Below are positions 25,501 through 59,117 of a stretch of DNA of 64,000 nucleotides, piece by piece (the first letter of the stretch is position 1; each line of letters starts with the position of its first letter). The notes under the pieces are model-generated. The model was not told the DNA's origin, did no database searches, and was given only the letters and a program-made list of their open reading frames with translations. Position numbers and translations under genes: made by a program. This DNA comes from Tubiluchus corallicola (taxonomy: Eukaryota; Animalia; Priapulida). The stretch spans positions 281,921-345,920 of the forward strand of contig JAQGDQ010002373.1 in NCBI GenBank assembly GCA_030141605.1, in the 5' to 3' direction.

Positions 25501-28500
25501 TGTAAGAGCACTAGCTTATAATGCTTCCTCTTACTTGTCAGTTCTGTTGCCATTTTATGCACATTTTATGGTCAACACCAAAGTTTAGAGCACTGATTCT
25601 GCCATCTAGTTGAATTGCTGTTGAACTAACAGGAGTTGGTATGCCTCTAAGCCAGTGGTTCTTAACCTTGTTGGAGGTACCGAACCCCACCAGTTTCATA
25701 TGCGCATTCACCGAACCCTTCTTTAGTGAAAAATAAAATATGATTTTTTTCAAATTCAAGACATAGATATGTTTTTTACTGGTACACAAAATGAGCCGTG
25801 CATGAACATCACCTTATTCAAAGAACAAAACCAACACAATGCATAAACTCACAACAAATTACATACCTGCAAATCAGTGTGACTTCTGCTGTTGCCTTTG
25901 AGAGACCAGTTCAGATATGCATGGCTTCACCTTGGCCACTCTGCTGAACCCCTGAGATCGACTCACCGAACCCCTAGGGTTCGATCGAATCCAGGTTAAG
26001 AACCACTGCTCTAAGCTAATAGTTTTTCATGCACTATTTGTAGTTGCTAATGTTAATTATTGTGTACTCCTAATATTTAAAAAAAACTTGGAAATGACCA
26101 GCATTTGTGCATTGCAATTTCACCTAATGCATCATAATTAGTCATTTGAACGAGAGAGGAAAACCGTGTAAATATTCTTTTGTTTTAGCTTTTTTGTAAA
26201 CTTTCTGGTTCGTTTTAGAAAAATAGTCTGCAATTTGCTGTCGCAATTTATTGACCATGGCTCATTTAAGTTTTACACTCACGACAGAGACATTCATTCA
26301 TTCATTTTCATATAAAATTTAATGCCTGCGGGCCATTTTTCCAAAATTGCTTAAATTTTTTTGAACTTTGGAAAATTATAAGACTATTATGCTTAGATAA
26401 GTTGTGTTTGCTGTTGAAAAACTAACTGCTTACAGTCAGTAATAATTAATAGATCAGTAATAGTTAATAGATAATGATACAGAGTGAAATTAATGCATAA
26501 CATAATGTTGACCTTTTTAGCTTGCCCTGTACGTGTTGTCGTTTTTGGAGCCTCGGTCACTTTTACATGCGGCTCAGACATGTCGTTATTGGCGTGTGTT
26601 AGCCGAGGATAATCTACTTTGGCGAGAGAAGTGCCGAGAAGCTGGAATAGACGAGGCAGTCGTGTTTAACAAGTATGTATGCAGTTTTATACAGAGCACG
26701 ACATTGGCTTTTTGTTCTTATACGAATGAAGCATAGAAACATGATTAAGAATGTTTGCTATTAAAAATAAGCTAGTGACAGCATGGTTTCAGTCAAACTC
26801 GATTGACTTCCAATCATTCACTTTTACATTGCGCTTGTGGCAAAATTTTTGCCTTGCGCCTAGTTTCTTGAATTTCATATACATTAGAATCTTGTTTTGT
26901 CACGGTGTTTGTGATGGCATAGCCTGTTATACTTGCATATTACATATTACAGTAAAACTTACATATTACATGCACGTGCATCCACTGAACATTACACTTG
27001 TGTTAGTAATCTCTTGTCACCCCTTTCCGTAAATGAAACTGCTAATAATGGGGTTGTCATTTTCTACTGTATTAGCTCAAACACCTGAAACCATTTAAAC
27101 TATTCTAAGTAGAGCATACCTGCTTCATGGGACTCTTTAGTAGAGCAAACAAAAGTGTATACCCAACGACAGAGATATTTTTAGAATGCGATTTTGTCCT
27201 GAAACTCTTAGAACTATGAGATGTTCTTATCAATTGTGTGCATAAAATTTCAAAAGTATTTTGCTGTTTTATTTTCATCTTTCATTTATTGTTCCAGTTT
27301 TTATGTTGATAGATAATACTTCCTTTAAGCTTTTAAATTGGTGCGGAGAATTAAGTTGTCTAAGTCTTGATTTTTATATCCATCTTGATGAAGAAATTCT
27401 GTCGCAAATATTTCATTTGTCTCAGGTCGTTTTTTTTTACAGATTTCCTTGCTTTGTTTTTATCTAGGAAACGAAGATTAGTCTCTGGCACTCATCGAAG
27501 TCCTTGGAAAAGTGCTTACATGCGACAGCATCAGATTGAAATGAATTGGCGAGTCGGTCAAATTCGCACGCCCAAGGTATAAGTTAAGAACGTGCGCTGT
27601 TATTTATAATCTTTAAATTTTTATAACATTGTCACTTAATAATGGTATGAGCTATTAGTTGAGATTTTTTTAACCAGACTTGTTCAAATAAAAAAATGTG
27701 AAAAGCTGAGAACGAACCTAGCTGATATTGGACTTGTAGTCTAAAGTTAGTTCTGGCTATTTCAATTTCTTATCTTGGCATTGGATTTAGAATCCAAAAG
27801 TCCAGGTTTAAATTAGGGCTCAGTTTCGGTTATGTTTGCCTTACAAAAAAACCTTGAGTTGTCAGTTTATTCTATTACGATATTCTACATTTCAGTTTCT
27901 ATCCTGCCCATATGTTTTGGTAAGCAAAACTAAAGATTTTTTTATTTAATATTGGAAAAATATTTGTGCTTTTCTAGGTGTTGAAGGGACACGATGATCA
28001 TGTTATCACCTGTCTGCAGTTCTCAGGTAACCGGGTTGTCAGCGGATCGGATGACAACACGCTCAAGGTGTGGTCAGCAACCACCGGAAAGGTAAGCGAA
28101 GTTTCTTTGGACACATATCTTATTTATTGTTTCATAAATGTTCCATCAATACAAATGTAAACATACAACAATGTATAGAATAACAAACAAAATGCTAAGT
28201 CACACTTTTGCCTACAGTTTCATTGTGTCCGTTGTACATACAGACCTATGAAGCAAAGTTCAAAAACTTTTGTGTAACAAATTAGGAAAGCCTGTTTTAA
28301 TTTAATAGTTGTAACAACATAATACAACATCCAACTTTTTCTAGTGTTTACGCACACTTGTTGGTCACACTGGCGGTGTTTGGTCATCACAGATGTCGGG
28401 TAACATTATAATCAGTGGTTCAACTGACCGCACACTAAAGGTTTGGAATGCCGACACTGGACAGTGTACGCACACTCTGTACGGGCACACGTCAACTGTA

Positions 28501-31500
28501 CGATGCATGCATCTACATGGGAATAAGTAAGCTTTTTTCAGTTTTTAATGTACTTTTAATCTACCCAGTGACTTTTACAGTCAAACCTCGTTTGGCATTA
28601 CAAAAGGAGTAACGCTCCTTTTGTAATGCCAACCTCCCTCAGGACCCAAATTTTAGTAAAACAAAATATCCGTATTTGCATAAATACGTATGCATGAATG
28701 CACCTTGTTATAATGCCAGACTCGCTATAACGTTTTTGCATTCTCAAAGTAGGCGGTGTAAAGAGGTTTGACTATTATGTTAATTTAATGTTCAGTAACC
28801 CAGATTCTAGATCTAGAGAAAGCAGGTGTTCAGATTTTTATTGCTTTTCAGTGTGTATGGCATTATATTATCATTTTCCAAATGCATTCAATATGTTATA
28901 TCTTTCTGCATTTCAGAGTAGTGAGTGGATCACGGGATGCAACACTTAGAGTCTGGGACGTTGACAGTGGTGAGTGTTTGCACGTGCTGATGGGTCACGT
29001 TGCTGCTGTCCGATGCGTCCAGTATGATGGCAAGAGGGTTGTTAGTGGGGCGTATGATTACACTGTTAAAGTTTGGAATCCGGATTCGGAAGAGTGCCTA
29101 CACACGTTGACCGGACATACGAATCGTGTCTATTCCTTACAGGTATGGCATTTTTAAAAAATCGATCGTAATAGTAGCAAGAATCGAGTAAGCAAATGTC
29201 TTTTACAGCTAATATAACAAAATAAATTACAAATTAAGAGCCATTGACTTTAACTTCATAATTTGAAAAAAAATGAATTTCATGTAAAAAATTAATTTTA
29301 TGTAACTATGTACTTTTAACTGTTAACAATTTATATGTTGTCAAGTCGCATCTTGCCAGAAACAGGAGTCTGCAATGGTGTATTTCATCTGTTGTAAATG
29401 GTCAAAACACAAAAACAAAATCTCCCACTCAGTACCACTTTCTCTCATCACATAACATTGAAATCCTGGGAAATTTAGGTAGTTGCAGTTATTATCTTTA
29501 TTATATCAGTGTAATTTTAAAAGTACTTTGTTAACTAATTCTTCGCTTTGTTTTCACTGCACACGAATGCATCCATTACAAGAATAGGAGTACAGTACAT
29601 GGCATCTGTTAGTACTACTGGTATCGTATTTTAATGTTTATGTAAATTATTCTTGTCTCTCACATCATTGATTGATGTTTACATTTTAGTTTGATGGCAT
29701 TCACGTAGTCAGCGGTTCACTGGATACATCGATACGTGTTTGGGACATTGAAACGGGTAACTGTTTACACACGCTGATGGGACATCAGTCGTTAACTAGT
29801 GGCATGGAGCTCAAGGACAACATACTTGTGTCGGGGAATGCTGATTCGACAGTCAAAGTGTGGGACATCGTGACAGGGCAATGCTTGCAAACATTAACAG
29901 GTAAACTAGGTCTCTTACCTTAATGTGTTCTACTACTGGTTTCTACTGGTGCTGCTGCTATTACTACTTGCTACTGTAGTACTTTACCACTATTTACTAC
30001 TATGTTCAGCTACTGTAGTTTGCCAGTTAAAGGTGGGGCAAGCTGAAATTCATTGAATTTTTAATACCAAACTTGAGTAATATATCTAAAGAAATTGGCA
30101 GTGATTCTGGAGTCTAGACTCGAATCGCAGATGATATTTGAATTATGAATTTAATAATTCTGTGTTCTTTCTATCAAAAAGTTCATGTTATGTTTTTCTT
30201 TTTATATTCTGTATTAAACAATCTCAGTATTTTTTGTTTGACTTAGGCACATAGTTAGCCTAGATAGCAATCTGCTTAATCTTCCTCTATCTGGGGCAAG
30301 TTATATTCTACATTCTTTTGTGACTGTCACACTTGCTTGATTGATAATATAACATTCAAGATGTGTAAACACTTTTCAGGCCCCAACAAACATCAGAGTG
30401 CGGTCACTTGTTTGCAGTTTAATAGCAAGTTTGTTATCACGTCTTCTGATGATGGTACCGTAAAACTGTGGGATTTGAAGACTGGTGAATTCCTGCGAAA
30501 TCTGGTGTCTTTAGATAGTGGTGGCAGTGGTGGTGTTGTGTGGAGGATAAGGTAAGCTAACTGAAAATTACAAAAACAACATACTAAGATTGACTCCCAA
30601 AATATGTGTGATGCGATATATGCAGAACAAGTTGATAATAGCAATTATACTTTTAATATATGGTCTTGTATGAGATTTTTTATTCCTGGAAATGACAATA
30701 ATTCATTGCAAAAAATATAGTTTTAAACATGAATTGAAATAGTACAGAGTAGTATAAAAAATGACAAACATTGTTTGAACCCTAAATAGGAGTGTAGTGG
30801 CTATAGAATTAATAAGTAAGCACTTTGAACACGACTTTAATGTAGTTCAATTATGTAAACATAATAAAATACTAGGTGATAGTAAACTTTTACTGTGTTA
30901 TCAGTTCTTGTTTGTTAGCCAAGACAACACAGCCTGTCTAGACAAGACAATATGTTTCCGACTCCTTATTGCTAATATTAGGCACATTCAAAAAGCTAAT
31001 GTTTTAGTTAAAGTTGAATCTTGAAGTGCACTCGTAACATGGCAATCGTATGCTAATAAAAGTTGACGTGAAGTAATTGAAGCTGTAGCTGTAGAACGTA
31101 TCAATGAGTACATTGAAAAGTTGTTGGCTTGACACAAGCATTGCTAGCAGCCAAAGCAGTAGTAGGCTAATTACATTGTTGCGTATAAGCTTGTGAAATG
31201 GCAAACGTGAGCCAGAAAATGCACAAACACCTTTTAAACTCAAAGTATTGACATGTTTTACGTTTTCTTGGCTTTCTATGCAAACAATAGCTTACTCATT
31301 ACACAAGTAATGAATAAAAATCAAGCAGTTAATTGAATTATTTTAACCTTCATTGTCAACAACTTCATCTAATCTTTTATAAAGGCTGCAAATGTTAACT
31401 CAGATGTATCATAAGTATTGTATCGTTATAGCTGTACTAGAAACAGGACTATTATTTTGTTTGACGTTAGTTGATAGCAACTTATTTTTGTTTCAGAGCA

Positions 31501-33783: not shown

Positions 33784-36700
33784 TCAATCCTCGTCATATT
33801 CAAAAGGTTCGGGTGGTTCTGGTTCAGCTTCTTCCTGCTCCACTTTAGGTCCATGTGCAACAACTTCCTCTATAATTTCCTCTGGTACTTCGGTTTTTAG
33901 ATTGCGCAACATAATCACTCCTCCGGTAGAGACCGGTTTCAGTGGTCTGTACCTTGTACCTTCAGGCATGCTAATTACTTTCAACTGTGCCCGCATGACA
34001 CGAGCCGGATTTGACAACATTTCAAAATTGGGTTCCGGTTCTTTTTTCTCTTCTAGTTTTTCTACTTCTTCCTCCTTACTTGTGCTTTCCTTGCTTGTCA
34101 TGGCTTCTTTGTTGGCAGCTTCTTTGCTGGACGACTTGGTCTTGCTCTCTGCTTTAGCACCCTTCTTTTCTTTTGCATCCTTTTGTTTTGAATCTTTCTC
34201 TTTTGAATCCTTCTCTACTTCATCTTTTTTTGGTTCATCTACTTCCATTTTATCTTGGCTGCGATGACGCTCTCTTTCTAATTCTTTCTTTTTGGCTTTT
34301 GCAGTAATACTAAGTATTGCTGTTGAAACTTTCTCCTTCTCTTTTTCTTTCTTTTCTTCTAGAGGTGGTGGATAAGCATACGTCGACGGCTTTGCACCAG
34401 ATTTGAACTCAATCTTTGGCATGGCCATGTTTGCATTCAAACCAATGAGACAAGTGGGCGTAAATGCTAGAGCCAGAAAATGTGCAAGAGGAAACCAAAA
34501 CCAGAACTGCAAGAACACTAACATGCCCACAACAGATGTCATGTGTGTGTGGCCAGTTCTTGACTGTAAAGAAATGGTAGTATTTCGCCCACCAGCATCA
34601 AGTATGCCCTGTGCTAATATAGCACCAAATTTAGCCATGACGTCATCATGTTTATCATTAATGACTTTGGTGTAAAGTTGTCTGAAGTATGTCACTTTTG
34701 GACAGGTAACCTCATTCTGCTGGATCAAAATCAAGGCCGAAGCAATAAGCACCCCTTGTCGAACGTAGTTTACTGTATCGTTTGCCATGGGTTCTAGCAA
34801 AGCAATAGCATCTTTCTGGCCTGTTCCTGCACAAGATATTCCTAATGCTATGGCAGCCCCATATCTTACATGTGGATTGTATGATTCTGACAACAAAGAG
34901 ACTACATTGGGTACTTGTTCTGGAGTCCTAAATAGTAAAAATCCTAAAGATTCCACAGCTGCTCGTCGAACATCATCATTTACATCACTAACCGCGACAT
35001 GCAGTAATCTTCGTATAGCACTGTTATTCCCAGTTCCACAGTATGCCATGGCTACTGTATACATGGCTGATCGCCTTAAAATAGGGTCTTTATCTAACGA
35101 TAGACTTTCAATAAGAGCATCTGCTTCTTCTAAACGCCCGTACATCACTAAAGCTATTCCAATTGCTAATCCACGAATAATTTTCTCATGCTGCGTTTCT
35201 TGTGCATAAGAAACCATGTCCTCGATGGCTGTTGGTGACCTTGAGCCAAGCATAACGATACCCATAGCTAGCCCAGCGGCCTCACCAGTCACAGCATCGT
35301 CTTGCAATAAATTCATCTTCAGCTGATCATAGACATCTTGGCGTGCCGTGCCCATTGCAGCAAGGCCCAAACCCAGACATGCACCATGGCGAACCATGTC
35401 AGTTGTAGCTTCTTTTAGTTGAGTTAATAAATAGTCTATCATTTTACCTCCATGATTAGCATGAATCAATCCTAGTGCATATAATCCACCCCCTTCAGAA
35501 TAAGCACTACCAGGGCCAGTTTCTTTAGGCAGGTAAGTTGCCATTAAACTCAATGCTTCCTTCTCATGACCCTTGTGAATGACACCTAAACTTGCAGTTG
35601 CAGTGAATTTTGCCCAATTCGTGGCTCGTGCTAGCCACTCTAAACTGTCCCTCAGAAATGTATCACTAGTTGTACCACAATGCATAAAAGAATTGCATAT
35701 TACTGTCGCTGTATGACAAACTGAATTACGCACAGCATCTTTTGTGTTTTTCAAAATTAACAAATCTGATTTATTATTTCGTATCAAAAACTGCAAATGA
35801 AGACCTATCGAAATTTCTCCGGTGAGAATGGAAGTAAGCTTGTCTAAACGGCTTTTTGTTTCTTTATCTTCTTCTGTCTCTGCAGTTTCAACAGCATCTA
35901 CTGTTTCTTTGCGTTCCTCGGATTTCTCATCTGTCTCCATTTCCTCGTCTTCAGTTGCAACTTCGGATCCAGGCAGCGCTACAGTGCCACGCAAAGCTTG
36001 GTGAACTCGATTGAGAAATTCTTGTGTAGCACTTTCGTACAAGTCAAAAGCAATTTGATAAGCAAGCAGCGTCCCGTTGTCAGTTTCCTTCACAAGTTTT
36101 GTCAATATTTCTGCAACAGAAACCGGATCATCAAGAAATATCAAACATTGGCATACACTTATATAGTCTGGAGTTTTCAAACCACTGTACAGTTCTACCA
36201 GAACTCTTAAGACAGTGTTGCGAAAATGGCGATTAGGTATCAATGTCATGCATACTCCAAGGGCATACGATAACATGCCAGATACATCGTTAGATTTATT
36301 TATGGCATCCTGAAACACGTCAAGACGACGAGTTTCCAGGGCAATTCCTACCGCTTGTTTGTATTTACCATCATCAAAGCATCTCTGAAACATTTTGTTG
36401 ACAACAGCCTCTAGCCGTGAATCGATTTCTACCTGTTCACTTGTTTCTGCATTTTGAACTCGTAGTTTTGTATAGTGATCAATACATTTGGCTATAATTG
36501 TTTCCACATACTCTGACGATGAATTAACATCAAACAATGCTGCTGCTCCAAGTGCGTACGTTAACGAGTCTTCAAAAGACCCGAGATGATAATAAACTTT
36601 GGATGCAACCAGTGCAGCCAAATTTCGATGTTTAAAAGCATCATCTTCATACAACACTTCTATTTTTGTAATCACTTCGGATATTTCTGCCCAGAAATCA

Positions 36701-36795
36701 CTAACGAGTATATTCAACTTCTGGAGGGCATAGAGCTTCAGGTCTGCCTCTTTTTCATCCAGCAATGAAATGATCCCAGCAGCAGAAGTGATCAT
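33784..36795 (-). CDS. PSMD1: 26S proteasome non-ATPase regulatory subunit 1 (Rpn2), 1003 aa, single coding exon
   Basis: Uninterrupted ORF. The canonical start [14 protein letters not shown] is at ATG 36795 (the track begins at an upstream GTG). PC repeats ([28 protein letters not shown]) and the C-terminal [10 protein letters not shown] motif are present. Confidence 0.98.
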
Positions 36796-36835
36796 GATGA
36801 CAAAGTCCACTTAGCTGAAAATTCTATTTGCAAAC

Positions 36836-37744
36836 CTACAAAAAACAAGAAAATTACATATAATAAATGCCTGTGTGTCTGTATATTTCATATTATGTAC
36901 ACTTTGAAAAAGGAAGTAAGAGACTGATATAAACACATAGTTACTAAGATAAAAATCTTTCTATATTAGTGGGAAACTATTTAGCCTTGTGTTCGAAAGG
37001 ATGGCACTTGTTCTTTTGAATTCAAGAACAAACTCTCTTTCAAGTATAGAAGCGGCATTGTGAACAACAATTATCTTTAAATACTCTAGGTATAGGAAAA
37101 ATGTGTTTCAATTTCTTCAAGGTTTCATTCTACCTTCCAAACACATACTTCCCACTTTACTTAACTAATGAGAAAAACTGCTTACACAATGAAAAATCAA
37201 CACTAAATAGAAAAGAACTACAAAAAAAACAACAAGTTTTACAGTTTTTCATCAAGCGCCTTTGTTAGCTACATGCAGCAACAAAACGCATTGCTTCACA
37301 GCTTAATAATACGTTATACTGTTTTATTTAATTTGGTCTTTGAAACTGTGTGATTGTCAGTTATATTTATTTTTGTTGATCATGTGAGCAACATAATAAA
37401 CAACCAAAACATCGTATGCATGTATTATACATGTGTTTCGTTAAATATGTTTAAGATACACTAACACTTAAGGGTGACAGAAGGGAAGTCAGTGAACACA
37501 TTTTACGATTACATATGATGCGAGAAGCTATCAGCTGTAATACATACATCTACCATCAAATGCCAAAATAATGAAGTAAGGATCTGAAATAAATTTAGAT
37601 CTAACGATGACCAGGAACACAAGGGTTAAGTACGACAGGAGAAAACGGACAGTATTTTAATTTCAAACTTATATTATACAGCAGTAATTTACAGTTTTTA
37701 CTATTAGCAATTCTATATTAAAACATCTACGCAATTAATTTTAC
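36836..37744 (-). other. PSMD1: Probable PSMD1 5'UTR intron (non-coding first exon at about 37745-37870)
   Basis: Minus-strand donor AAG|GTAAAA at 37744 and acceptor TTCTTGTTTTTTGTAG at 36836. Confidence 0.6.
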
Positions 37745-37868
37745 CTTTCCTCGCACTCAGCGTTCGTCAAAGCACTCTAACAAGAATTTAGCCACGATAA
37801 GCTTTCACAAATATGGAAAAACAAAAGAAAAATCCACATGTATCTCAAATTTTCGCCGCAGCTTTTAC

Positions 37869-37897
37869 GCTGTGTCACGCGTACTACTTTCGGAAGT
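37869..37897 (-). promoter_or_regulatory. PSMD1 promoter: ARE-like (GTGACACAGC) and ETS-like (CGGAAGT) motifs
   Basis: RTGACnnnGC match on the minus strand at 37869-37878 and CGGAAGT at 37891-37897, in a CpG-containing patch beside the inferred first exon. Confidence 0.5.
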
Positions 37898-39616
37898 ACA
37901 GATCGTTACGCTGAACATTAACTTGATAATACAAAATTGTAACCTTTGATACAATTTGATACCTTATGATACCTTAAAAGTGTATGAGGGAATAAATTGG
38001 TGTCAGTTAGTCACTTTTTAAGCAACATTTAAAAAATTTGTTATGTACACCAGTAGGCAAGTGCAAAAGTCCGCAGCTAGCGCATTATTAATTACTTTTG
38101 GTACTTAGCCGGAATTTTGCAAAAACGTTTTGAAAAAGAGGGAACCGCAATTATTGTGCGACTATTCACGACCAGTTATGATAAATCTCGTTATATTAAA
38201 ATATTAAACTGGTGTGACACAGATTTATAATAATTATTATTAATCTTCTACTAGAAGATGTTGGATGAATCAAGATTAGTGTGGAAGCAGAAGTGGCTCA
38301 GAGCAGCATGCTCATTTTGTATGTCCTAGTTGCAGTTGGATTAATTCTACAGCTGGAAAACGTAAAGCATTAAAGTACACTATAATGTAATCTTAATTAA
38401 AAAAAATTAAGCTTACACAATTTTCGTTACTACTTCTTATTCACTGCCTCTAAATTCTTAACTTCACCTGTTCTTGGCTTTTGTTATGGCACTGTTGTTT
38501 TTGGCTATTGTTATAGCACAGTTGATATGAATCGATTTCACAAATACTTGACGATCTTTAATTTTCTTTTCTCGCTGTCTAGACATCGCCATATCTGTTT
38601 GCTAGTACATTGAGTAGTAATGCAAAATGATGTTTGATCGTTAATGATTTTACGTAGCCATGTAGTTCTGCTTCTAGTTGAATAACATGGCTAGTCATCT
38701 ACACTCAACTTGTTCCACTGTGGGGTTGTGCGGGGGGAGGGCGTAGTGAAAGGTTATGTGGTGAAGATGTGCTTAAAAACAGATACGGATTTGCTGGAAT
38801 TACGTATGAGGATTGGAGTGACTAGATCCTCAGTTAACTCTCAACATCATCATCAACACCATACAGATCGACGCTGTCCTTTCTTTGATATTCAAATATT
38901 CACCTTTGGTATGCATTCATTACTATATTATTGCTATGTGTCTAGATTGCCTACTGTAATAATACTGTTGTTGAAAACGAACTTGAGTCCTTGTCTCTTC
39001 ATCTTGTCTGTAGGTATGTTGTTGCCCTGTGGGAAATAAATAACCCAAATGTCTCCAAGTACTGTACACCACATAATTAGAGTGATGTATTTTTTTTTGA
39101 TTAAGAGAGTACTCGAGGCTGCATCGTTGCTGTTACTACCTTCTTTGCTCTGATACCACTATGCTTCACTATGTTATGTCGAGATACATTGCCTGATTGG
39201 CTGTGATTTGCAGGCCTAATTGTGTTGTACGCAGCTCGTATGTGTGTGAAAGTGGTGGCCTTGTTCTGCAACTTAGCATTCCTTTAGCAACGGAGATTGC
39301 ACAACCCAACAAGAGAAAGACAACAAGCCAAAGCGAGGGAAAATATCAATATTGGCCTGAGTGTGTTGCACTGTACACTATTACACTTTTGAATTTTCGC
39401 AGCATTATTGTAACAACAGTCAATTTAGGCACATGCCACATCTGGGTGTTACGGCAAAGCATAGGCAAAAGCTATTATAATAAAGGATTCAGAGCAAAAT
39501 CTTGACATTTTTATTTTACATCCCATGCACCTGATTAATAGCATCCTTATAATATCCTGTAATTATACTAAAATATGGGATATAATACACATATCCCATA
39601 TCTCATATTATAATGT

Positions 39617-39795
39617 TTAATTATTCATATGTTAATAACCTGTGAATACAGAAGAAAAGCCAATTTTTAACTAATCAGGAAATAGCAAGAATGGCCAGTT
39701 AGGAAGCATTCAACCAGGCACGCATGCATTGAAATAGATAGATTGAAACTGACATACACACACGCGCGCGCACACGCACACGCACACGCACACGC

Positions 39796-39841
<46 letters not shown>

Positions 39842-39989
39842 CTTTATATGTATTATGCCAATTAAAATGCTTAATCATTCATATGTTAATAATATGTGAA
39901 TACAGAAGAGAAGTGAAACCACTTTCCAACTAATCAGGAAATAACAAGAGTGGCCAATTAGGAAGCATTTAACCAGGCAAGCATGCATT
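39617..39989. repeat. Direct duplication (~115 bp x2) flanking a (CA)n microsatellite
   Basis: 39617-39730 resembles 39871-39989, with (CA)n/(CACACG)n at about 39756-39840 between them. Confidence 0.85.
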
Positions 39990-40329
39990 CACATGGAAAT
40001 GGTTTACCTCAGAGGGAGCTGGAGGGTGATGAGCAGACACTGGATGATACTATAATATTAGAAAATTGAAAGGAAGCCTTTAATTTAAATTTTAATTTCA
40101 GTACCAGTTTAATTGTTCTTGTTTATATGACGTGCTACATTTATTAATAAGTCATACTTGCTTTGTTCCATGTCTATGGTTTTAAAATTTTCCATTGTTA
40201 TGGTTTCTCTACCGTATGTTTTTTATTCTACTTGTGAATAAAAAACAGAAAACAGTGTTTTCAGAATCTACAGAATCTACTGTTTTCTGCTTTTCAATAA
40301 AAAAAATCTATAAACTAAAAACAAGTAGA

Positions 40330-40780
40330 AAAAGGCAAAGTGCTTTAAACTACCACTGTAGTTTCTCTTTTAGCGAACAAAAAAAGGACAAGAAAAAAGA
40401 AGAAAATCACAAGGAATTACCAGAACTGGTAGTGAACAAATTTTTGTAGGGCGTTTTTAGTTTACAGTATAATTATTGTAAAATTACTGTTCTAGTATAA
40501 TATTAACTTTAGTTTACATTATTAACACATAAAAAGGATATCACATTGAAAAGGATACAGACACATATTAATTAACGTTTTATACTTTCATTGTTTTTGC
40601 CTTGTGTTCGTCTCTGCTTTGCTGCTGTGCTTTTTTTCTAGGTGCCTGTATCATTAACTAAAAAACAGTTAAGTAGCTGTAGCATTCTTTGTGATTTTTC
40701 AAGCTCACTTCTTATTGTCCTTTCTTTTGTTTACCTGAAGAAAAACTAATTGGTAGGTCGGAACGTTGCGCCCTTTCTTT
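40330..40780. repeat. Degenerate inverted repeat pair
   Basis: About 40330-40420 versus about 40680-40780, for example AAAATCACAAGGAAT and ATTCTTTGTGATTTT. Confidence 0.45.
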
Positions 40781-42086
40781 CTTTTTTCCCTGTGTTCAGA
40801 GATCCTTGGCATTTCGTCATACCAATGTATTATTTAACCACAATGTATTCTTGTAGTTAAATTCATAAACAACAAAGCTGCACTCGTGCTCCTGGATAGC
40901 AATACTTTTGTCTTTGATGCGTAAGTGTGAAAATAAAATTACTGGAGCTGTCAAATCCTGGACGATAGATGTTAACCTCAAATATTTTTACTGATTTTAA
41001 TTAATCGTCTATTGTCCAGAAAGGACATTCTGCTAAGAAGAAAAAGATCATGTATTATTACATTAGAAGTATTGTTTACAGCTCTCAAGAGAGAGTTCTC
41101 TATAGGTCACTGATTTTATGTAGCCAGGCCTTGGCTATGATTAGTCTTGCATTGTTTCCTAAATATTGCTGGTTAGCTGATAAATTGCGCAACAACACAT
41201 TCTGTGGTATTTTGTAGGTGAGATTGGCATATCACTACTCTGCCCATAGTCTAGTAAGTCACAGGTTCCAGATTCTGGTTCAGTGGGACTGTAATATAGC
41301 TTGATACCAAGGCTCTCAGATGAGATGCTGAAGCAGTAAAGGTGTCTTAATCATGTCTTTAATTCAACGAGATAAATTCGGTAAATGCCACCCAGAGAAA
41401 GCACTAAACCTTACAGTCTCACACCATTCTCTGATCAGCTTTGCCAGTTGTTAACTTTGGTCGTTATTCAACGCAATACCGTAACCACTCGGCTGTTCTT
41501 TTTCCAAAAAAAAACCGTGTCCATTACTATTAATACTAAATAGCAATGAATTAATGATTAGTTTACTACGGCTCGCAATATAATCACACCTTAGACCTAT
41601 AGTATGTAAACATTATGTTTGCCATTTTTACCGTGTTTCCGGCGTTGGTGCTTAATATCAGTGTGAGAGACTTAATATTTACTTCTAACGTGACATCCTG
41701 CCTTGATAACATCTTGCGATCGCTATTAATAGTTTCATGTGCCATATTCACGAGGCTAAAGATTTTGAAGCTGCTTGTGGCCCATCTATGCTATGCTGTA
41801 AGCCTGACAATTGTAAACATGTAATGATAAACGTTATTGTTTGCAATTTAACGTAATATTTCCGGCGATGGCGCAGTCAGAATAACGTTGCGAATAAAAT
41901 ATCGCCACGTTATATTTGTGTTGTATACGTGATACACCATGTAAACACCATCGTCAGCCATAAATTTTCTTCATTCGGTCGATAACATTTATCAGTAAAT
42001 TTAGCTTCCTGTGGGACTGCGTTGAAGCTTCTAAAGTAGGCGGAATATAATTGCAGGTGTGTCAGTATTTTTCACCGGTACTAGCA

Positions 42087-42440
42087 AATAAAAAAGGAAA
42101 TATGGCAACCTAGTAGTCCGGGGCGAGCAACAGCCGAGTGTAAAGGCGTGTGCTAGCAATGAGAGTTAAACAACACAGGAGTGGTTAGTAAATAAGTGCT
42201 TAACTGTACGCAGGAAAATTTCTTTTGGGCAGTTTTGTTTTGTTGTATGCAGCAAAATAAATAGAAACGAAAAGGGAAATATGGCACAACCTAGTAGTCT
42301 GGGGCGTGTAACAGCTGAGTGGTAATGGCGTGTGCCTAGCAACCGAACTTAAGCAACATGGACCGGTCAGTAAATGGTTGCTTGACTGTCGTATGTCGGT
42401 AGGAAAATTCATTTTGGGCAGTTTTATTTTGTTGTATGCG
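42087..42440. repeat. Diverged tandem duplication, ~175-bp unit x2
   Basis: GGAAATATGGCA..ACCTAGTAGTC.GGGGCG ... TTTTGGGCAGTTTT.TTTTGTTGTATGC occurs twice. Confidence 0.8.
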
Positions 42441-42473
42441 CGTTACTGTACATAGGTATGTATACAGTACATA

Positions 42474-42871
42474 TGTTATGACAGATAAATAACATTACTA
42501 ATTGCTGTGTTTCTTTCTGTAGAGAAAACAAGAAAACACGTTGTCAAATTAAACTGGTTTATTGTGTGAGATTTCCACAACGCAAAATATGAAGGAATGC
42601 AAAATATGTACAGTCAAATGATAGGAAAATAGCATTCGATAATCTGGGAATCTGAGATAAATCTGAGAATCTGAGAATAAACTCGAGCGGCCAGCTCCGC
42701 CTTATATACTAATGCAAATGGACAACACCAGAACAATCTAGAAACTACTACACGCATCGCGTATAGAAAGTTCTAGAATCTACGATTGCTTCTACAAGGT
42801 AAAAAGATTGTTCTACTATACTATAAAACATTCTACAATTTTCTATTCAATTCTAATGGATCTCCATAACA
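42474..42871 (-). mobile_element. Solo LTR-like element (398 bp)
   Basis: TGTTATG...CATAACA termini. On the minus strand, a TATATAA box (about 42701-42708) precedes an AATAAA (42558-42563), matching U3-R-U5 order. The U3 side carries nGAAn repeats. No clean TSD seen. Confidence 0.65.
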
Positions 42872-44257
42872 CTAATGCATTTATAAATAATAATTTATAA
42901 AAAGAATTATCATTTATTTTTTGCAAGCAATTAAACAGTCGTACAATGACAAATGAGATAACTTAGTTACTGTAAATCTTTGAAACTCCTTACCAACGAT
43001 TAGAGCTGCTAAATGCGATTTTCACACATTTCAGTGTAAAGGATCAAAAGCGTCGAATGATTTAAAAATTGATGCAAGAATTTCCTCCACGCTTAATATC
43101 TTTGTAAATAAAATAAGAAATTAGTGATTTATTTTTATCTTTCATGTGCTGGTTTGAAATATTTGTAGTAATTCTGTAGTTTTACTTATAGTAATTCCGT
43201 AATTTTACTTGTAAGTCTGCTTCCGGAGATTCACCTTTTAACGTCTGTGAGATAATTTGATTTTGTACTGCAATGTACTGCATTAGTTATTTTTATTGAA
43301 CTAGCGACTTTATTTTCAGCTGATTGTCTTGATATCGCAATGAGTCCTCGCCCTTGTTTGATTGGTTGCTTTCCGGGTCGGTTTGTTCCCTCGTATTTCG
43401 GATGTCAAGTCTTCTGGATTCAATGCTAGGATGATGAAAAACTTTCTACAGATGCTGTCCGTTTGTGTCCGTTTACCTGCTGAATCAATGAGGCCATTCG
43501 ATGTCAGTGATTTTATACCTGGTATACAATGCTGATGTGCATAATTAAGAGGAATTTTAAACTGCTAATGAGAAAATAAATTGAATTGAATTGAATTGAA
43601 ATTGATGTGCAATGGCTTCATAATGGATCGAACTATTATTTCATTTCTCGCTGGGATGAATTTGTCCTGTCAGCCATAAGAAATGGTAACACTGGTTGCC
43701 CGTGTCAGAATGCTTATCTATGACATGCCAGTACTGTATATATCGTGTAAGAAATAAATATTAATATCTGCATCACTAACAAATACTAAATTTTATTCAC
43801 CAAATTATATTATCTCGATGTTGCGCTCATCGACTGGTATTTTATTGCGCGTATTTTTTTCAGGAAAGCTAAGACTAGGTCAGAGGTAAAGAGAGAGACC
43901 TGAGATTCCTATTTCTGAATTTATCAACATGACAGCTTGCAAACTGATGCAAAGTTTTTTATGCTAGGTCGTATTATATGTACTGATATTTTTTCAAATT
44001 TTATAATAATATTAAGCTTTAAAATATGTTTTTTTCTATGTTACAGTGCGCATATGTAATGCAATTTTGCGCTGATACATTTGGCTTGAACAATAAATTT
44101 TATCTCAGTGTGTGGTTGTGTATCTCAGTCTACCTCATACACCAAAGCATCAAGACTACTGAGCACTTTCTTATATTATTTGTTTTAAAAATGACATGTT
44201 TGCATATTATCATGATTAAAATTATAAAATCTTAATCAAGGCATGTAGATTGGGCGA

Positions 44258-44531
44258 TAGAGCCGGATTTTCCAAGGGCATAATAAGTCACTGGCCCTAG
44301 GGCCCACGGGTACCTGGTGTCCCACTGAAACTAATTTGTCATCCACCGTGCCTGTAAATAACTCTTGTTTCAAATCTACACCGGTTATTTCATTGTATGA
44401 TATATTCGAAACCATAAGGGCCCCTGTACAATAAGTACAGTGCTCGGAGAATGGGGCCTCTGCACGATAAGTACAATTTAGGGCCCATTGATTTGTTGGC
44501 CTAAGGCCCACAAATAGGTACATCCCGCTCC
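44258..44531. mobile_element. Degenerate MITE-like relic rich in GGGCCC motifs
   Basis: Loose inverted ends (AGAGCCGGAT / ATCCCGCTCC) and repeated GGGCCC near both ends; family uncertain. Confidence 0.35.
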
Positions 44532-44617
44532 GATGGGAGAAACTGAAGGATTGGACCCAGGCACAAGACGGTCAGTAACGCAGTATAAAACGTTTTAGTT
44601 GGTTTAGGTTCGTTTGC

Positions 44618-44790
44618 CAGAAGTTTTTTTCACAGAAAAACCATTTCCGAGAAACAGTAACTTCCCAGAAAAGATATTTGCCAGAAAAAACTTTTTGCCA
44701 GAAAACTTTTTTCCCGGAAAATATTTTCCCCAGAAACCTCGTTTCACAGAAAAAGCATTTACCAGAAAGATTTCTTAACAGGAAAATCAC
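44618..44790. repeat. Degenerate ~16-bp tandem array (CCAGAAAAnnnTTTT-like)
   Basis: About ten CAGAAA-anchored units are visible. Confidence 0.65.
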
Positions 44791-44859
44791 GGTTACTTTT
44801 TAACTGCTAAAAGTTTGCTGTCTTAGTGGAATAAAGCTTTCGATTTCTCTTTCTCTGTC

Positions 44860-44969
44860 TGGTTCTCCCTTGTAGTTCTTTCCCATTTCCCATCTTATCC
44901 CTCTCATCTTCTCCCTCTTTTCATCTCCCTCTTTTCTTCACTTTCTCCCCCGTTCTATCGCCCTTATTC

Positions 44970-45015
<46 letters not shown>

Positions 45016-45085
45016 GTCTTTCCCTTTGTCTTTGTCTCTTTCCCTCCCTTTCTTCTCTCTTTCCATCTCACTTCTCAGCCCGCCC
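44860..45085. repeat. Polypyrimidine / (CT)n tract
   Basis: Directly visible. Confidence 0.85.
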
Positions 45086-45089
45086 TCTC

Positions 45090-45519
45090 AATTGAATTTG
45101 AAGTGATTATGTGTAGCAAATGATACAATGCAAATTATGCTGAGAAAGCAGTTTCTTATTCGTATTCGTATTCTCTCACCCGTTTTGTTCTTTCCCTACC
45201 CGGCATCCCTCCCTTTCCCTTTCTCTCTGTCATCCCCTCACTTTTTCACTCTTTGTATCTCCTCCCTCTCTCTCTTTCGGGTTTTCTCTTTCTGTTCTTC
45301 TTTAGTTATCTACAGGGCTTTGATTAATGACTAACAAAAATCAGATTCATTTCAAATAACGTATTGTTTAGGGTCAATCTTGTTTTTTTGTATTTCGTTT
45401 TGGGTTTGTTTTGAAAATTCATTGCTACAATTTAAGATTACTACTTTTTAGGATGAAACTTTTCTCTCGGCGTAATTTGCATTGTATCACATGCTGCACA
45501 TAATCACTTTAATTCACTT
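45090..45519. repeat. Inverted repeat pair (~58-bp arms)
   Basis: AAGTGATTATGTGTAGCAAATGATACAATGCAAATTA (about 45101) versus TAATTTGCATTGTATCACATGCTGCACATAATCACTT (about 45473). Confidence 0.75.
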
Positions 45520-45975
45520 GGTTTTCATAAGATTTAAGATAATACTTGATAAATAATAATTATTAAAAATCAAAATACAAAGCTTTGCGAACGATACAGA
45601 TTTGTTAATATCTTGAGGTCGACATATGCCCAATGAATTATGCTACTTCGCTAGCAAGTTCAATAGCAAGATAAGCCTCTGAGATAAAATACTGAACAGG
45701 CAGAGATATCACAGTCACATTCAGATGCATGAACATCTCTAAACATCAAGAAATGATTCGGAATCACTGTAAAAGTACTATCCAAGAGTGATATTAATTT
45801 GCAGTTTCCCTACAAATCAGTTGCCCTGCTTTGTGCTGCTTAAAGTTGATAATCAATTACTCGCCGTGAGTACTCACTATTGCGTTTATGCAAACTTCAA
45901 CATGATTCACTACCTTATCGTTCTAACGTTGTAAATCTATGATTCATTACATTTTCCGTGCATTTTATTTACCAG

Positions 45976-46463
45976 TTCTGGGAAATGGCAGTTTTTTTCT
46001 CGGAAGTAAATACTTCTGGCAAAGTGTACACCGTTTAGTGCTTTGATAAAAGCAGCTGACACTGGTAGTGAATATAAACAATTATTACAACACTGTTTGC
46101 AAAAGATCAAGTATTTGAATAAATTTAATCTAAAAAACTTTTTATACAATTTAAAATCGTCAACTTAAAGGCGTCTTGTAGGAGCATAACTGAATAATTC
46201 ATTAAAATATAAACCTGTACTTCCATTCTGCACTTGCATTAATATATCTGTACATAATTATAATAATTACTAAACTAAAGTGCTAAATTAACAATGCTTG
46301 TTCAGTAGCCGATGGAGATTTTGGAAACGATAGCGTAGGCACTTCTGTTAGTGGAAGGAATGCTTTCCCCATTTAAGTGACTTAAATTAGCCACAGGTTA
46401 TCCCCGTACAATAAGACGGGGATGAGTAAAGCCCGGGCAAGGTTGTTGATGTTGGGTTTTCCC
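45976..46463 (+). promoter_or_regulatory. Paired STAT-type sites and a kappaB-type site upstream of the cytokine-like gene
   Basis: TTCTGGGAA at 45976-45984, TTCTCGGAA at 45997-46005, GGGTTTTCCC at 46454-46463. Confidence 0.45.
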
Positions 46464-47289
46464 TTTACACCAACCTAAGTATTCATAAGGCACAGGCATA
46501 GCGAAGCACAGGTATTATTGACACACATCAAGCGCCAGAAAGCACATATCTTCAGTAACAAGAATACTGCACGTGCAGCTGCAAGGTAAGAATATTATAC
46601 ACTTATTAGTAGTAACGCGATAAGCTTATAAACTTAAATTCCTACACGAACGTTAAAATTCAATTGATAGTTCGTACACGTTTACAGTATAAGTATTACA
46701 TACGTATGTAATTTAAAATAGTTTATTGTGCTTTAAAATCTACATCTAATAAACTTTTTCGCTTTCCGTGGCAAATGGCATTTACAATAATCTGAAAACT
46801 TTGAATTTAAAGTAAAATATTACTATACGTACGCACACTTACGAAGAGAGCACTAAAAGCAGCACAAATTTTCAAGTGGCGAATCGTATCAGTTTTGTGA
46901 ACTCCAAAAAGTTCCTTTCCACTAGAAAACAGTTCAGTCACTTTCTCTAGTGGATCAGTACCAAAAAATGCACCGGCAAAGTAAAAAATACTTTATGGTT
47001 TGATGTAAATGTTGTAAAAACTTAGCATAAACAACTACGTTGATGTAAATAAATGGTGACTATTTAGCTTCAACGCCAAAAACACAATGTGCCGAAGCAT
47101 CTTCGTTATTATAGTCAGGTTTAATGTGACTTACATTGAACTTCATAATACAGAAAAGTTTGCTTCGCAAACCAGGCAGCGGGGATTAAACTCTCACTGT
47201 AAACCTTTTATTTGTTTTGTGTACATCTCCAGATTATGAGACCTTTTCATGTGACTGATTGAAATTTACATTTATTCTTCCCAGATTAC

Positions 47290-47292
<3 letters not shown>

Positions 47293-47367
<75 letters not shown>
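47293..47367. repeat. (AT)n microsatellite
   Basis: Directly visible. Confidence 0.95.
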
Positions 47368-47369
<2 letters not shown>

Positions 47370-47773
47370 TCGTTATGGTATATAAAATGATGAAATTTCT
47401 GAAGACCACATTTTCTGCTTTTTACTGTAAATCATTGGGTGTTTAATAGGTTTGAATTTTTGAAATAGTCTGCGTTACTATATGCAGGTCTATAATTTCT
47501 GATATTAAATTTTTTTATAAAGTTGACTATTATAGATGACAACAATCCAGCTTTTATTTCTATCGTGAATATAGCTAGTTCAAACAATTTAATGATTTAG
47601 CGCTACCCGCGAGAGAACGTCATATCGCCTATTCCTAGATCTAGATAGTCAACTCAAAACTGATAAATCCCTTCTGTGTAAATGTGCATGTGCAATGCTG
47701 GAAGATTGTCATCAGTTGACATAACACCTGATAATACTCATTATGCCCCCACCTACATAAATGATAAAGCCGA

Positions 47774-47817
47774 CCAATGCCTATATAAGCCAGTCTTTGC
47801 GCTGAGGTTGCATCATT
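47774..47817 (+). promoter_or_regulatory. Core promoter: CCAAT, TATA box and Inr-like TCATT
   Basis: CCAAT at 47774, TATATAA at 47782-47788, TCATT at 47813 about 30 nt downstream, and several TGATAA (GATA) motifs at 47661-47767. Confidence 0.6.
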
Positions 47818-47958
47818 ATTTCGTCATTCTGATTTCTTTGTGACTATAATGTTGTCGATAATATCAGTGCAAGTATCAACGTCTATAGTTATTTTTTGAC
47901 CAGGTTTAATAATTTTTAATTTGACAAAGGTTCCGTTTGAATATGAGAAACAAGAAAC

Positions 47959-49910
47959 ATGTCGGGGGATAAAACTGCAGAAGAACAAGTTGCTCGTGGC
48001 AGTGTTGTAACAGTTGAAATGGAAGAGCCAACTACAACGAAAGACACGAAAATGATGCGCTTTATTGTGAGGCTGAAGAAAATATCGAGAAATGGATTTA
48101 AAACCTTTAAAAATTTGTTTAAATTCGACTTTAACATCTCTACCGTCTTGGTGGTATTGTTGACAGTTTTCATGCTAAAAAATGACGAGAAGGTGCCGGA
48201 CTGTAATCATTGGCATAACCACGTGACTCATCATTTCAAAATGCCTGCGACAGTCAAGAAACTAACCCAGTGTGAAACTGTGATCATGCGGGCTCAAGCT
48301 GTTCGGTTCAAAGCTGAAGAAGTCTCGAACGAAATTCTGCCAAAGGTACACATATTTTGTATATATTTTACTTTATACTTTATCGACCATATATAGTCAC
48401 ATATTAGATCATACATAAATCATTCTATAGTCTTAGACAGTAAGGCAGATTGTTAGACAGATATATGAAGTACAATTATTACTGAAATCTAGAATACCAT
48501 TATGTCAGCAATGAAGGTGTGACCTTTTTCCACGTTAAATAGCGACGCAGGACAATAAATGGCAACTCACACAAGTTAAAAATACAAACATCAAAAACAG
48601 TCGCAGAAGTAAGCGAGCATACATAATGTTGCATACACATAAGCTCAACGTCTATAACTCAAAAAACTATAACGCACGAAAACAAAAGTAACAAATTGTA
48701 TCAATATTATATATACAGAATACGCCTACCATCCATAGTCCATATTTATTTTAACTGCTAAACTTTCACTGTGATGTCTAAAGGTTAGAAATTGAGTAGG
48801 CCTATCTACAAGTTAAATTTGGGCATTAGAACTTGTGGTTTTCTTACGTTTGAAACACTTGTGCACGTTCATCGTTTTGTGACTAGAAAGTCTGAAAAGC
48901 GGCGTGATCAATGACAATATCTGTCACAGCAATCACGCGAGAACAATAACAGGTCAAAATTAAGTTTCAGATTGCAACTACACTGATGTGTAGAGAGCTA
49001 TCTCTCGCAAGAGGAGCGACAAAATTAACTCTGGGTTGTCTGTGTATAATTAAAAATCATTTTTTCAGTTGGGATTTGAATCTCATCCAGGATATGATTT
49101 GTACCCAGGACTGATCGCCGACGAAGGATTTCCATCTCCGCCAGACATTGATTCAAACTGGAGCGTATGTTGATTGATTAATGTACAAAATTAATATTTT
49201 CGATAGACTGCATTGGCTAGAAATGTAGGCTTGTTTGTTCTTATTGGCGCGAAAAATATTCGTATCGACGGCGGTTATCTCAATACTGTATTTAAAAATG
49301 CCTACATATGTGCTTACCTTTAGCCAACTACGGCTTTTTGTTAGTTGTTTTGTAGTATACATATACTCATATTCATCAAACAAAATAGGGCAAGTTCAAA
49401 AAAGCTTAAACTAAGAAAACATAGAAAATATAAAAATAGAAGTTATTTCTTTTAATTTTTTTAAGTTTTAAAATTATTTCAAAATTAATTATTTTAGCAA
49501 TGTAATCACAGGCCATAATCTGCGCGTATCACTAAGTTTTACAAGAATACCTAAACTAAATGAATTTTTATTTATAGGCTTTCGAAGTGGTGGATCTCGT
49601 TTATAAAAACACCACAAACATCTTGGAATTTGTGACTGAAGCGGCTGAGTCTTATGAGGGGTTTGATTATTCTCTAGTCTACGTCGTAGATGAGATTAGG
49701 AATTTGATCGCCTTGGTATTTTTCACCTCGGAAGCCATTACGGGGCAAGTAGTGCAGAAGTTTGACGCTGATGTTACTCCCAAGAGTCCGGTCAACCCAT
49801 CAGAATTTGATTTTCGAACGTATCAAATGATGAGAAATCTCATGAGCTATATGACTTTTGTTCAAAATGTTTATGATAAAATAAACAAAAATGAAATAGT
49901 TTCGGCCTGA
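47959..49910 (+). CDS. Uncharacterised 271-aa protein with signal anchor; candidate long-chain four-helix cytokine
   Basis: Exons 47959-48345, 49069-49164 and 49578-49910, both introns GT-AG phase 0, giving one open frame. Hydrophobic segment FNISTVLVVLLTVFML, four amphipathic segments, AU-rich 3'UTR. The gene model is well supported; the product call is inference. Confidence 0.8.
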
Positions 49911-50944
49911 TTGTTGTTTTTTGATAGCACGTGTAAGTACCTTAATCAAAGTATTGGCTACCTAATTATCCCAGTGATTTTGTTAATAAATGTTATTCTC
50001 GTTTTTTGGTTTGTTTTGTTTCTTTTTTGCTTATATCCATATGTAGCATATATATTATAAGGACTATAATAATATATTTATATGACTGAGCACGTCTAAT
50101 GCATTGTCTTATCGTATTTTGATATGTCCCTATAGTTTTTAACAATGTACACGTAATTATATTAAATTATATTAATACTTCCTTATTTATTTGTAATTCA
50201 TTTGTATGATTCAGAAATACAGCGTTTAATGAATTACTCATATTTATTTAAATTCGCAGATGCACGTCTTTTAAGCCTATTTCGTGACTAGGGCCTATAT
50301 ATAACACGAAAACTCATGGTGTCTAACCTCAAAGACAAAGTATAAAATGAAATTAAAAACTTAAAAGTTAATGGATTATTTAAGCTTAGTATGTACGAGT
50401 GTCTCAGGACAAGTAGTTTTGCTGCTAAATTTTGCTGACAGCTATCATGTTCAGTAATGATTTTGTAATTTATGTATATAAAACTCATAGATATGTAATG
50501 TTGGGCAATAAACTGTTTACCTATGTCACGCTATAGTTTTCAGTCTCTGTTGTTTTGCACGTGTTTTTATCATGCAAGCCAAGTCCCACACTCAGAAGCA
50601 ATGCTATCACATCGGCATCACAGATAAAGTAGCAGACAATTTTTAGATGGCTACCAGTTAAATTTGTTTACTAAATAGACCCAGCACTGCTTAAGTTTAC
50701 AACCAAGCACGCACTGTGGCAACTCATGCAGTTGTTTTCCTCGTTTTACTACGATGCTACTTTATCAGTTCATTTAAAAAATTCATATGGATATCGCTTG
50801 CTGGAATAGTTAGCTTTACAAATGACAGATAAACTGAATATATGACATAGTTAACAGCTTCGAATAAAGTATATCCCCGAAAATCTGATGGGTAAAGAAT
50901 TTATAGAGCAATAGGTAAAGAAGGTTAGGTCATAGAGACAGCTA

Positions 50945-51197
<253 letters not shown>

Positions 51198-51633
51198 AGT
51201 TGTAACTTGGTGTATTATGTTTTTAGTACTTTACGGGGAAAACGCAGAAGCTACCAATTATTTCAAAAATGAGAAAATTACAGTTGTTATGCGTTTATAA
51301 GAGATTGTCGCGAATTTATCTTTTTTTTTCTACAAAAATCAGTAATAATGAAGACCCTTTGAAAACATTCCAATTTCTCTTAGAATGGTACGATGGAAAC
51401 AATTGATTTGCTGAAGAGAAGAGATTGTCATCCTTCGGAGATTATCAGCCTCTTTTACCGTTACTGAATCAAAGATTCTTACTAAATTTTCACGGCTGAG
51501 TAAACTCTGGCTTCTTCTAACGTGCGTGAAATTTCTTTGCAAAAGTGGTTGGTAGATGGCAGCACATTCCTTCTCTACAGCGTTAACTTTCGCGGAAAAC
51601 GCGAATTTCATAACAAGCAATACTCATAGAAAG

Positions 51634-59117
<7,484 letters not shown>

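Follow-up and report, generated by a model that had tools for sequence, protein, structure and literature searches.

In a window of 64,000 nucleotides (nt) from contig JAQGDQ010002373.1 of Tubiluchus corallicola (assembly GCA_030141605.1, positions 281,921 to 345,920 of the forward strand), a three-exon gene at 47959-49910 encodes a real and constrained protein, because its single homologue, P0121, joins the exon 2 and exon 3 peptides and differs from exon 3 mostly by conservative substitutions. An earlier note, made from sequence alone, had read the product as an IL-6/Upd-like ligand. Based on our analysis, we put the chance that the product is a long-chain class I helical cytokine of the IL-6/IL-12/CNTF type, likely acting via a Domeless/gp130-like receptor on JAK/STAT, at slightly better than even. 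That such a ligand is held in an anchored form is a more tentative proposal.

A ligand of this kind would be of interest in an invertebrate. According to the accessible part of a 2026 survey, IL-6-like ligands were not found in most invertebrates, and receptors, JAK and STAT are widespread (PMC13203501); likewise, the available text of a review reports the Domeless ligand as missing in ticks (PMC7962413). A concrete gene makes the JAK/STAT ligand question testable in one more lineage. Our literature search, conducted mostly without subscription papers, found no paper that deals with this gene or describes a helical cytokine of type II anchored form in an invertebrate.

Gene structure and the homologue P0121

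The gene model proposed in the earlier note checked out in its exon coordinates. The introns of 723 and 413 nt both have GT..AG borders and are phase 0, and the spliced frame comprises 271 codons without an internal stop, closed on the 5' side by an in-frame TGA 12 nt before Met1 (47944-47946). The coding exons are as follows.

47959..48345, + strand: exon 1, coding part (129 amino acids, aa), with the N-terminal tail, hydrophobic segment, stalk and predicted helix A; its join to exon 2 predicted from splice signals
49069..49164, + strand: exon 2 (32 aa), predicted to form the AB loop, acidic and rich in Pro/Gly; of 22 residues aligned with the N-terminus of P0121, 14 are identical
49578..49910, + strand: exon 3 (110 aa plus stop), with predicted helices B and C, the CD loop and helix D; 85 of 110 residues identical to P0121

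By stop frequency, about 2 and 6 such open frames are expected by chance in this AT-rich window, so that chance could account for the open exons by themselves and the model needed outside support. Coding is shown by P0121 and not by the length of the frame. When exon 3 was compared with 1.84 billion representatives, P0121 was the single match (E 3.6e-50, 79%, 133 aa); it derives from one Logan contig of 1047 nt and forms a cluster of one. Residues 1-22 of P0121 match the end of exon 2, and the exon 3 match follows on directly, apart from a single additional residue at the joint. This continuity is the pattern expected of a relative's spliced transcript, the alternative being intron loss in the relative. 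Exon 3 and P0121 are separated by 25 substitutions, 15 of them BLOSUM-positive, and identity amounts to 92% in helix B, 88% in helix C, 72% in the CD loop and 63% in helix D.

Further searches returned no other relative. None of 93 candidates among longer proteins matched exon 3 at E<=1, none of 15 candidates among proteins of 70-226 aa matched exon 1 at E<=10, and metagenome contigs gave 0 of 219 pattern matches. Within the window tblastn found no paralogue, and an Rfam search of 37000-52000 gave no match. Contigs from run X1 pass the exon 1 donor into intron 1 unspliced, and so look like DNA, possibly that of the source sample, and are uninformative on splicing; they contain no exon joints and leave exon 2 uncovered, and run X2 gave no coverage.

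Predicted fold and comparison with known cytokines

The predicted helices of exon 3 span residues 162-185 (B), 192-216 (C) and 235-264 (D). Modelled alone, exon 3 formed three long helices, with a predicted local distance difference test (pLDDT) of 49 and a predicted template modelling score (pTM) of 0.29; the P0121 model has helices at 18-47, 54-78 and 97-126 (pLDDT 51.6, pTM 0.45). These models bear out the earlier description of helices B and C joined by a short linker and followed by helix D. The Pro/Gly loop on an exon of its own was likewise confirmed, as exon 2 is acidic and has 9 Pro and Gly among its 32 residues. The fourth helix is predicted in exon 1.

48256..48342, + strand: predicted helix A, residues ~100-128, ending at the exon 1 donor; helix propensity like that of B-D and a heptad stripe with 7 of 8 positions apolar

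Long-chain class I cytokines combine helices of 20-30 residues with extended AB and CD loops, a short BC link and a length of about 170-190 aa. The candidate has the size and loops of this class, with helices of 24-30 aa, a BC link of 6 aa, a CD loop of 18 aa (from the models), an AB loop of ~30 aa and 172 aa from helix A to the stop, the helix A part being drawn from propensity and heptad pattern only. In the low-confidence models, the predicted loop, hairpin, crossover and helix align over 93-126 residues to the cytokine region that follows helix A. The vertebrate long-chain class I cytokines compared were CNTF (PDB 1cnt_1), IL-12 (1f45_B, 8xrp_A), IL-23 (5mzv_B, 4grw_C), IL-27 (7u7n_D), CLCF1 (8d7h_D) and prolactin or placental lactogen (3n06_A, 1f6f_A), to which the predicted bundle of ~172 aa, with long AB and CD loops and a short BC link, is alike. 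With low confidence, then, the B-C hairpin, the long crossover and helix D may be packed as in cytokines. The IL-6/Upd-like reading of the earlier note is thereby partly supported.

Foldseek on PDB and BFVD returned nothing at E<=0.001, and no cytokine was among the best 50 rows for the exon 3-alone model, a low-confidence model that excludes nothing. A two-chain prediction of the helix A piece with P0121 scored 0.00 and is evidence neither way. In Pfam, exon 1, exon 3 and P0121 matched no cytokine or Upd family at E<=10, with sub-threshold unrelated rows only; among PDB sequences neither query A1 nor P0121 found a match, and exon 1 gave one chance row (tachylectin-2, E 2.8). Together the Pfam and PDB sequence searches provide no lead for or against a cytokine family. 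Lamprey IL-6 likewise escaped sequence search, as stated in the accessible part of its description (PMC13081863).

The proposed role would resemble that of Drosophila Unpaired 1-3, the Domeless ligands, as an invertebrate cytokine on a gp130-like receptor, and Unpaired is described as acting on such a receptor in the available text of the survey (PMC13203501). The differences are that the searches gave no sequence link to Unpaired and that, by its Rpn2 neighbour in a weakly supported tree, the host groups with neither the insects nor the arachnids sampled. Upd2 has been described with a signal-anchor, which our literature search did not confirm. SCF, M-CSF and Flt3 ligand are short-chain ligands of receptor tyrosine kinases with a C-terminal (type I) anchor; the likeness to them would be that of a tethered helical cytokine released by shedding, and the candidate differs in that its anchor would be N-terminal. 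Other members of the cytokine family have fewer exons than IL-6. We rejected the gene as an IL-6 orthologue on exon layout, since it has three coding exons with two domain introns, both phase 0, flanking the AB loop. For SCF, membrane-bound and soluble forms are noted in the accessible part of one paper (PMC3376141), and the IL-6 gene is given five exons in that of another (PMC13081863).

Membrane topology and competing explanations

The features on which topology and expression were assessed are listed here.

47782..47817, + strand: TATA-like box (47782) with an initiator-like (Inr-like) motif ~30 nt downstream, a putative core promoter
48055..48129, + strand: residues 33-57, a basic amphipathic stretch of net charge +7 whose hydrophobic moment exceeds that of shuffles (p 0.004 and 0.012)
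48130..48177, + strand: hydrophobic segment, residues 58-73, best 15-aa Kyte-Doolittle mean 2.37; likely a signal-anchor or signal-peptide core
48178..48273, + strand: stalk, in which Cys82 and Cys105 flank five His (84-92), read from the sequence
49985..50512, + strand: 3' region with AATAAA at 49985 and 50507, ATTAAA at 50161 and 50352, and six ATTTA at 50076-50472

The basic N-terminal stretch followed by a hydrophobic segment, as the earlier note had it, is present, and residues 58-73 are predicted to be a short N-terminal signal-anchor into the secretory pathway. The segment has only 15-16 residues, favourable over 15 but not over 19-21, with 7 Lys/Arg in the 20 residues before it and 2 Lys/Arg plus 3 Asp/Glu in the 15 after. 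Residues 58-73 would thread the protein into the endoplasmic reticulum and, by the positive-inside rule, the basic tail would stay cytosolic while the bundle faces out. An up-up-down-down four-helix bundle would be completed by helix A, encoded where exon 1 ends, and the ligand might act tethered or after cleavage in the stalk, signalling through a Domeless/gp130-like receptor to JAK/STAT with possible feedback through upstream STAT-like sites. The whole of this proposal, a type II anchored gp130/Domeless-class ligand released via a His-rich stalk, with upstream STAT-site feedback, in a lineage without a described JAK/STAT ligand, is one we regard as doubtful. JAK/STAT ligands are known mainly as secreted proteins. 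Should the N-terminal segment prove to be an anchor that stays uncleaved, contact-dependent signalling would be added to the class, and the anchor is a possible new variant among helical cytokines.

Five His in nine residues (48208-48234) stand beside Cys82, possibly as a metal-binding or pH-sensitive stalk. One run X1 contig differs at 48218, resulting in Asn87Ser within this stretch of residues 84-92.

Several points are weaker than the earlier note had them or leave room for other explanations. The 7 of 8 apolar stripe and the propensity of helix A are not matched by its hydrophobic moment, which does not exceed that of shuffles (p 0.59 and 0.80). P0121 supports exons 2-3 and not exon 1. 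The two cysteines of the pair claimed earlier are present as Cys82 and Cys105 but lie 23 residues apart, a weaker pairing than claimed, and any disulfide between them is putative. Ferritin-like rows tie with or outrank cytokines in the structure comparison and make up 20 of the best 50 rows, and helices B-C are 88-92% conserved against 63% for D, a pattern less typical if D carries receptor sites. The TATA promoter has its Inr at the usual distance, but the box is one of 154 TATAWAWR matches in the window, of which 8 share that arrangement. Finally, the ATTTA motifs noted earlier are there, six in number, yet all lie beyond an AATAAA at 49985 that is followed by a T-rich tract, and they may therefore be outside the main mRNA. 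In 49911-50500 the ATTTA count shows no enrichment over shuffles (6 versus 3.8, p 0.18). For WATTTAW there is a mild excess (6 versus 2.3, p 0.02), and a count of 6 was attained in none of 430 sliding windows of 590 nt; in 49911-50360 the WATTTAW count is 4 versus 1.9 (p 0.14).

The first alternative shares the cytokine fold and pathway and differs in topology. Here the protein would be conventionally secreted from Met21 or Met32/33, with residues 58-73 as the core of a cleaved signal peptide behind a long basic n-region. The core of only 15-16 aa and the context of Met21 (A at -3, G at +4) suit this explanation. Signal peptidase sites carry small residues at -3 and -1; no such site is evident by eye after the core, where charged residues stand instead (Lys, Asn, Asp, Glu, Lys), and the n-region is 25 residues long even from Met33. 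Vertebrate and lamprey IL-6 do have signal peptides, according to the accessible part of PMC13081863. On balance, we consider conventional secretion unlikely.

A lineage-restricted helical-bundle membrane protein other than a cytokine, for instance an organelle-targeted one with a generic or ferritin-like bundle, appears to us no more probable than conventional secretion. The basic amphipathic residues 33-57 (p 0.004) followed by a short hydrophobic stop resemble mitochondrial or Golgi targeting, and the standing of the ferritin-like rows and the conservation of the helices given above argue in the same direction. Ferritin-like bundles (Dps, ferritin, bacterioferritin) share the pattern of hairpin, long crossover and helix; the superfamily is marked by a pair of hairpins with a crossover between them and by Glu/His di-iron ligands. 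However, their root-mean-square deviations are higher (3.9-5.4) and they need a fourth helix after the last one, for which there is no room, as only 7 residues separate the third modelled helix from the stop codon; exon 3 is also without His, and membership in the ferritin-like superfamily was rejected on these grounds. In addition, the Pro/Gly loop on its own phase-0 exon between helix and hairpin fits a cytokine AB loop, and two N-glycosylation sequons (159, 172) both lie C-terminal of the anchor.

It is quite improbable that the 5' model is wrong, such that exons 2-3 belong with a different upstream exon (there is a strong donor-like site near 46587) or come from a shorter frame, and the anchor and helix A are absent from the protein: the exon 1 donor, GTACAC, fits the consensus poorly and P0121 is called from a Met within the exon 2 peptide, but the window has Leu at that Met, and exon 1 is open for 129 codons, has a coding-like guanine-plus-cytosine content of 0.41 (0.34 and 0.27 in the introns), stands directly behind the TATA box and Inr and ends in phase with exon 2.

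Upstream sequences and neighbouring genes

44625..46005, no strand assigned: STAT-site-like TTC-N3-GAA palindromes; a degenerate 16-bp tandem array (44625-44773) contains five, and two more stand at 45976 and 45997

These seven palindromes lie 2.0-3.3 kb upstream of the gene, five of them exact in the array and the pair 21 bp apart (within 45976-46024). Five occur in 200 nt against a maximum of 3 in Markov simulations (above 100 of 100), but the cluster, being a degenerate 16-bp array, was not counted as evidence, since this control takes no account of tandem repeats. The palindromes could be candidate STAT sites or the remnant of a repeat element. No kappa-B-like site occurs in the window. 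For fish, the accessible parts of three papers describe cytokine mRNAs with ATTTA motifs and interferon genes with phase-0 introns (PMC4929537, PMC12162339, PMC3271213).

Two upstream ATGs lie in the putative 5' leader (47849-47899, 47943-47972), and the second of these opens a frame that runs over Met1, so that translation may start preferentially at Met21 or Met32/33. A strong splice-donor-like site at 46580-46593, ~1.4 kb upstream, may mark a further upstream exon.

The upstream neighbour is an Rpn2/PSMD1 gene (33784-36810, minus strand), and the downstream neighbour is a multi-exon phosphoribosyl-pyrophosphate synthetase gene (51636-59117, + strand). Further upstream is a multi-exon F-box/WD40 gene (~24500-30600, + strand), which we take to be FBXW7-like. 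The FBXW7-like and synthetase genes are ordinary and usable as synteny markers for orthologues. Rpn2/PSMD1 is a single uninterrupted frame of 1008 codons, both genes flanking it being intron-rich, and is a possible retrocopy or case of wholesale intron loss. In a tree of 54 proteins (the window's and 53 of the 120 listed), the Rpn2 of the window groups with none of the insects, arachnids, molluscs, nemerteans, hemichordates and vertebrates sampled, a weakly supported placement (0.76). Two diverged direct copies of a ~150-nt element were seen by eye at 42085-42240 and 42270-42430.
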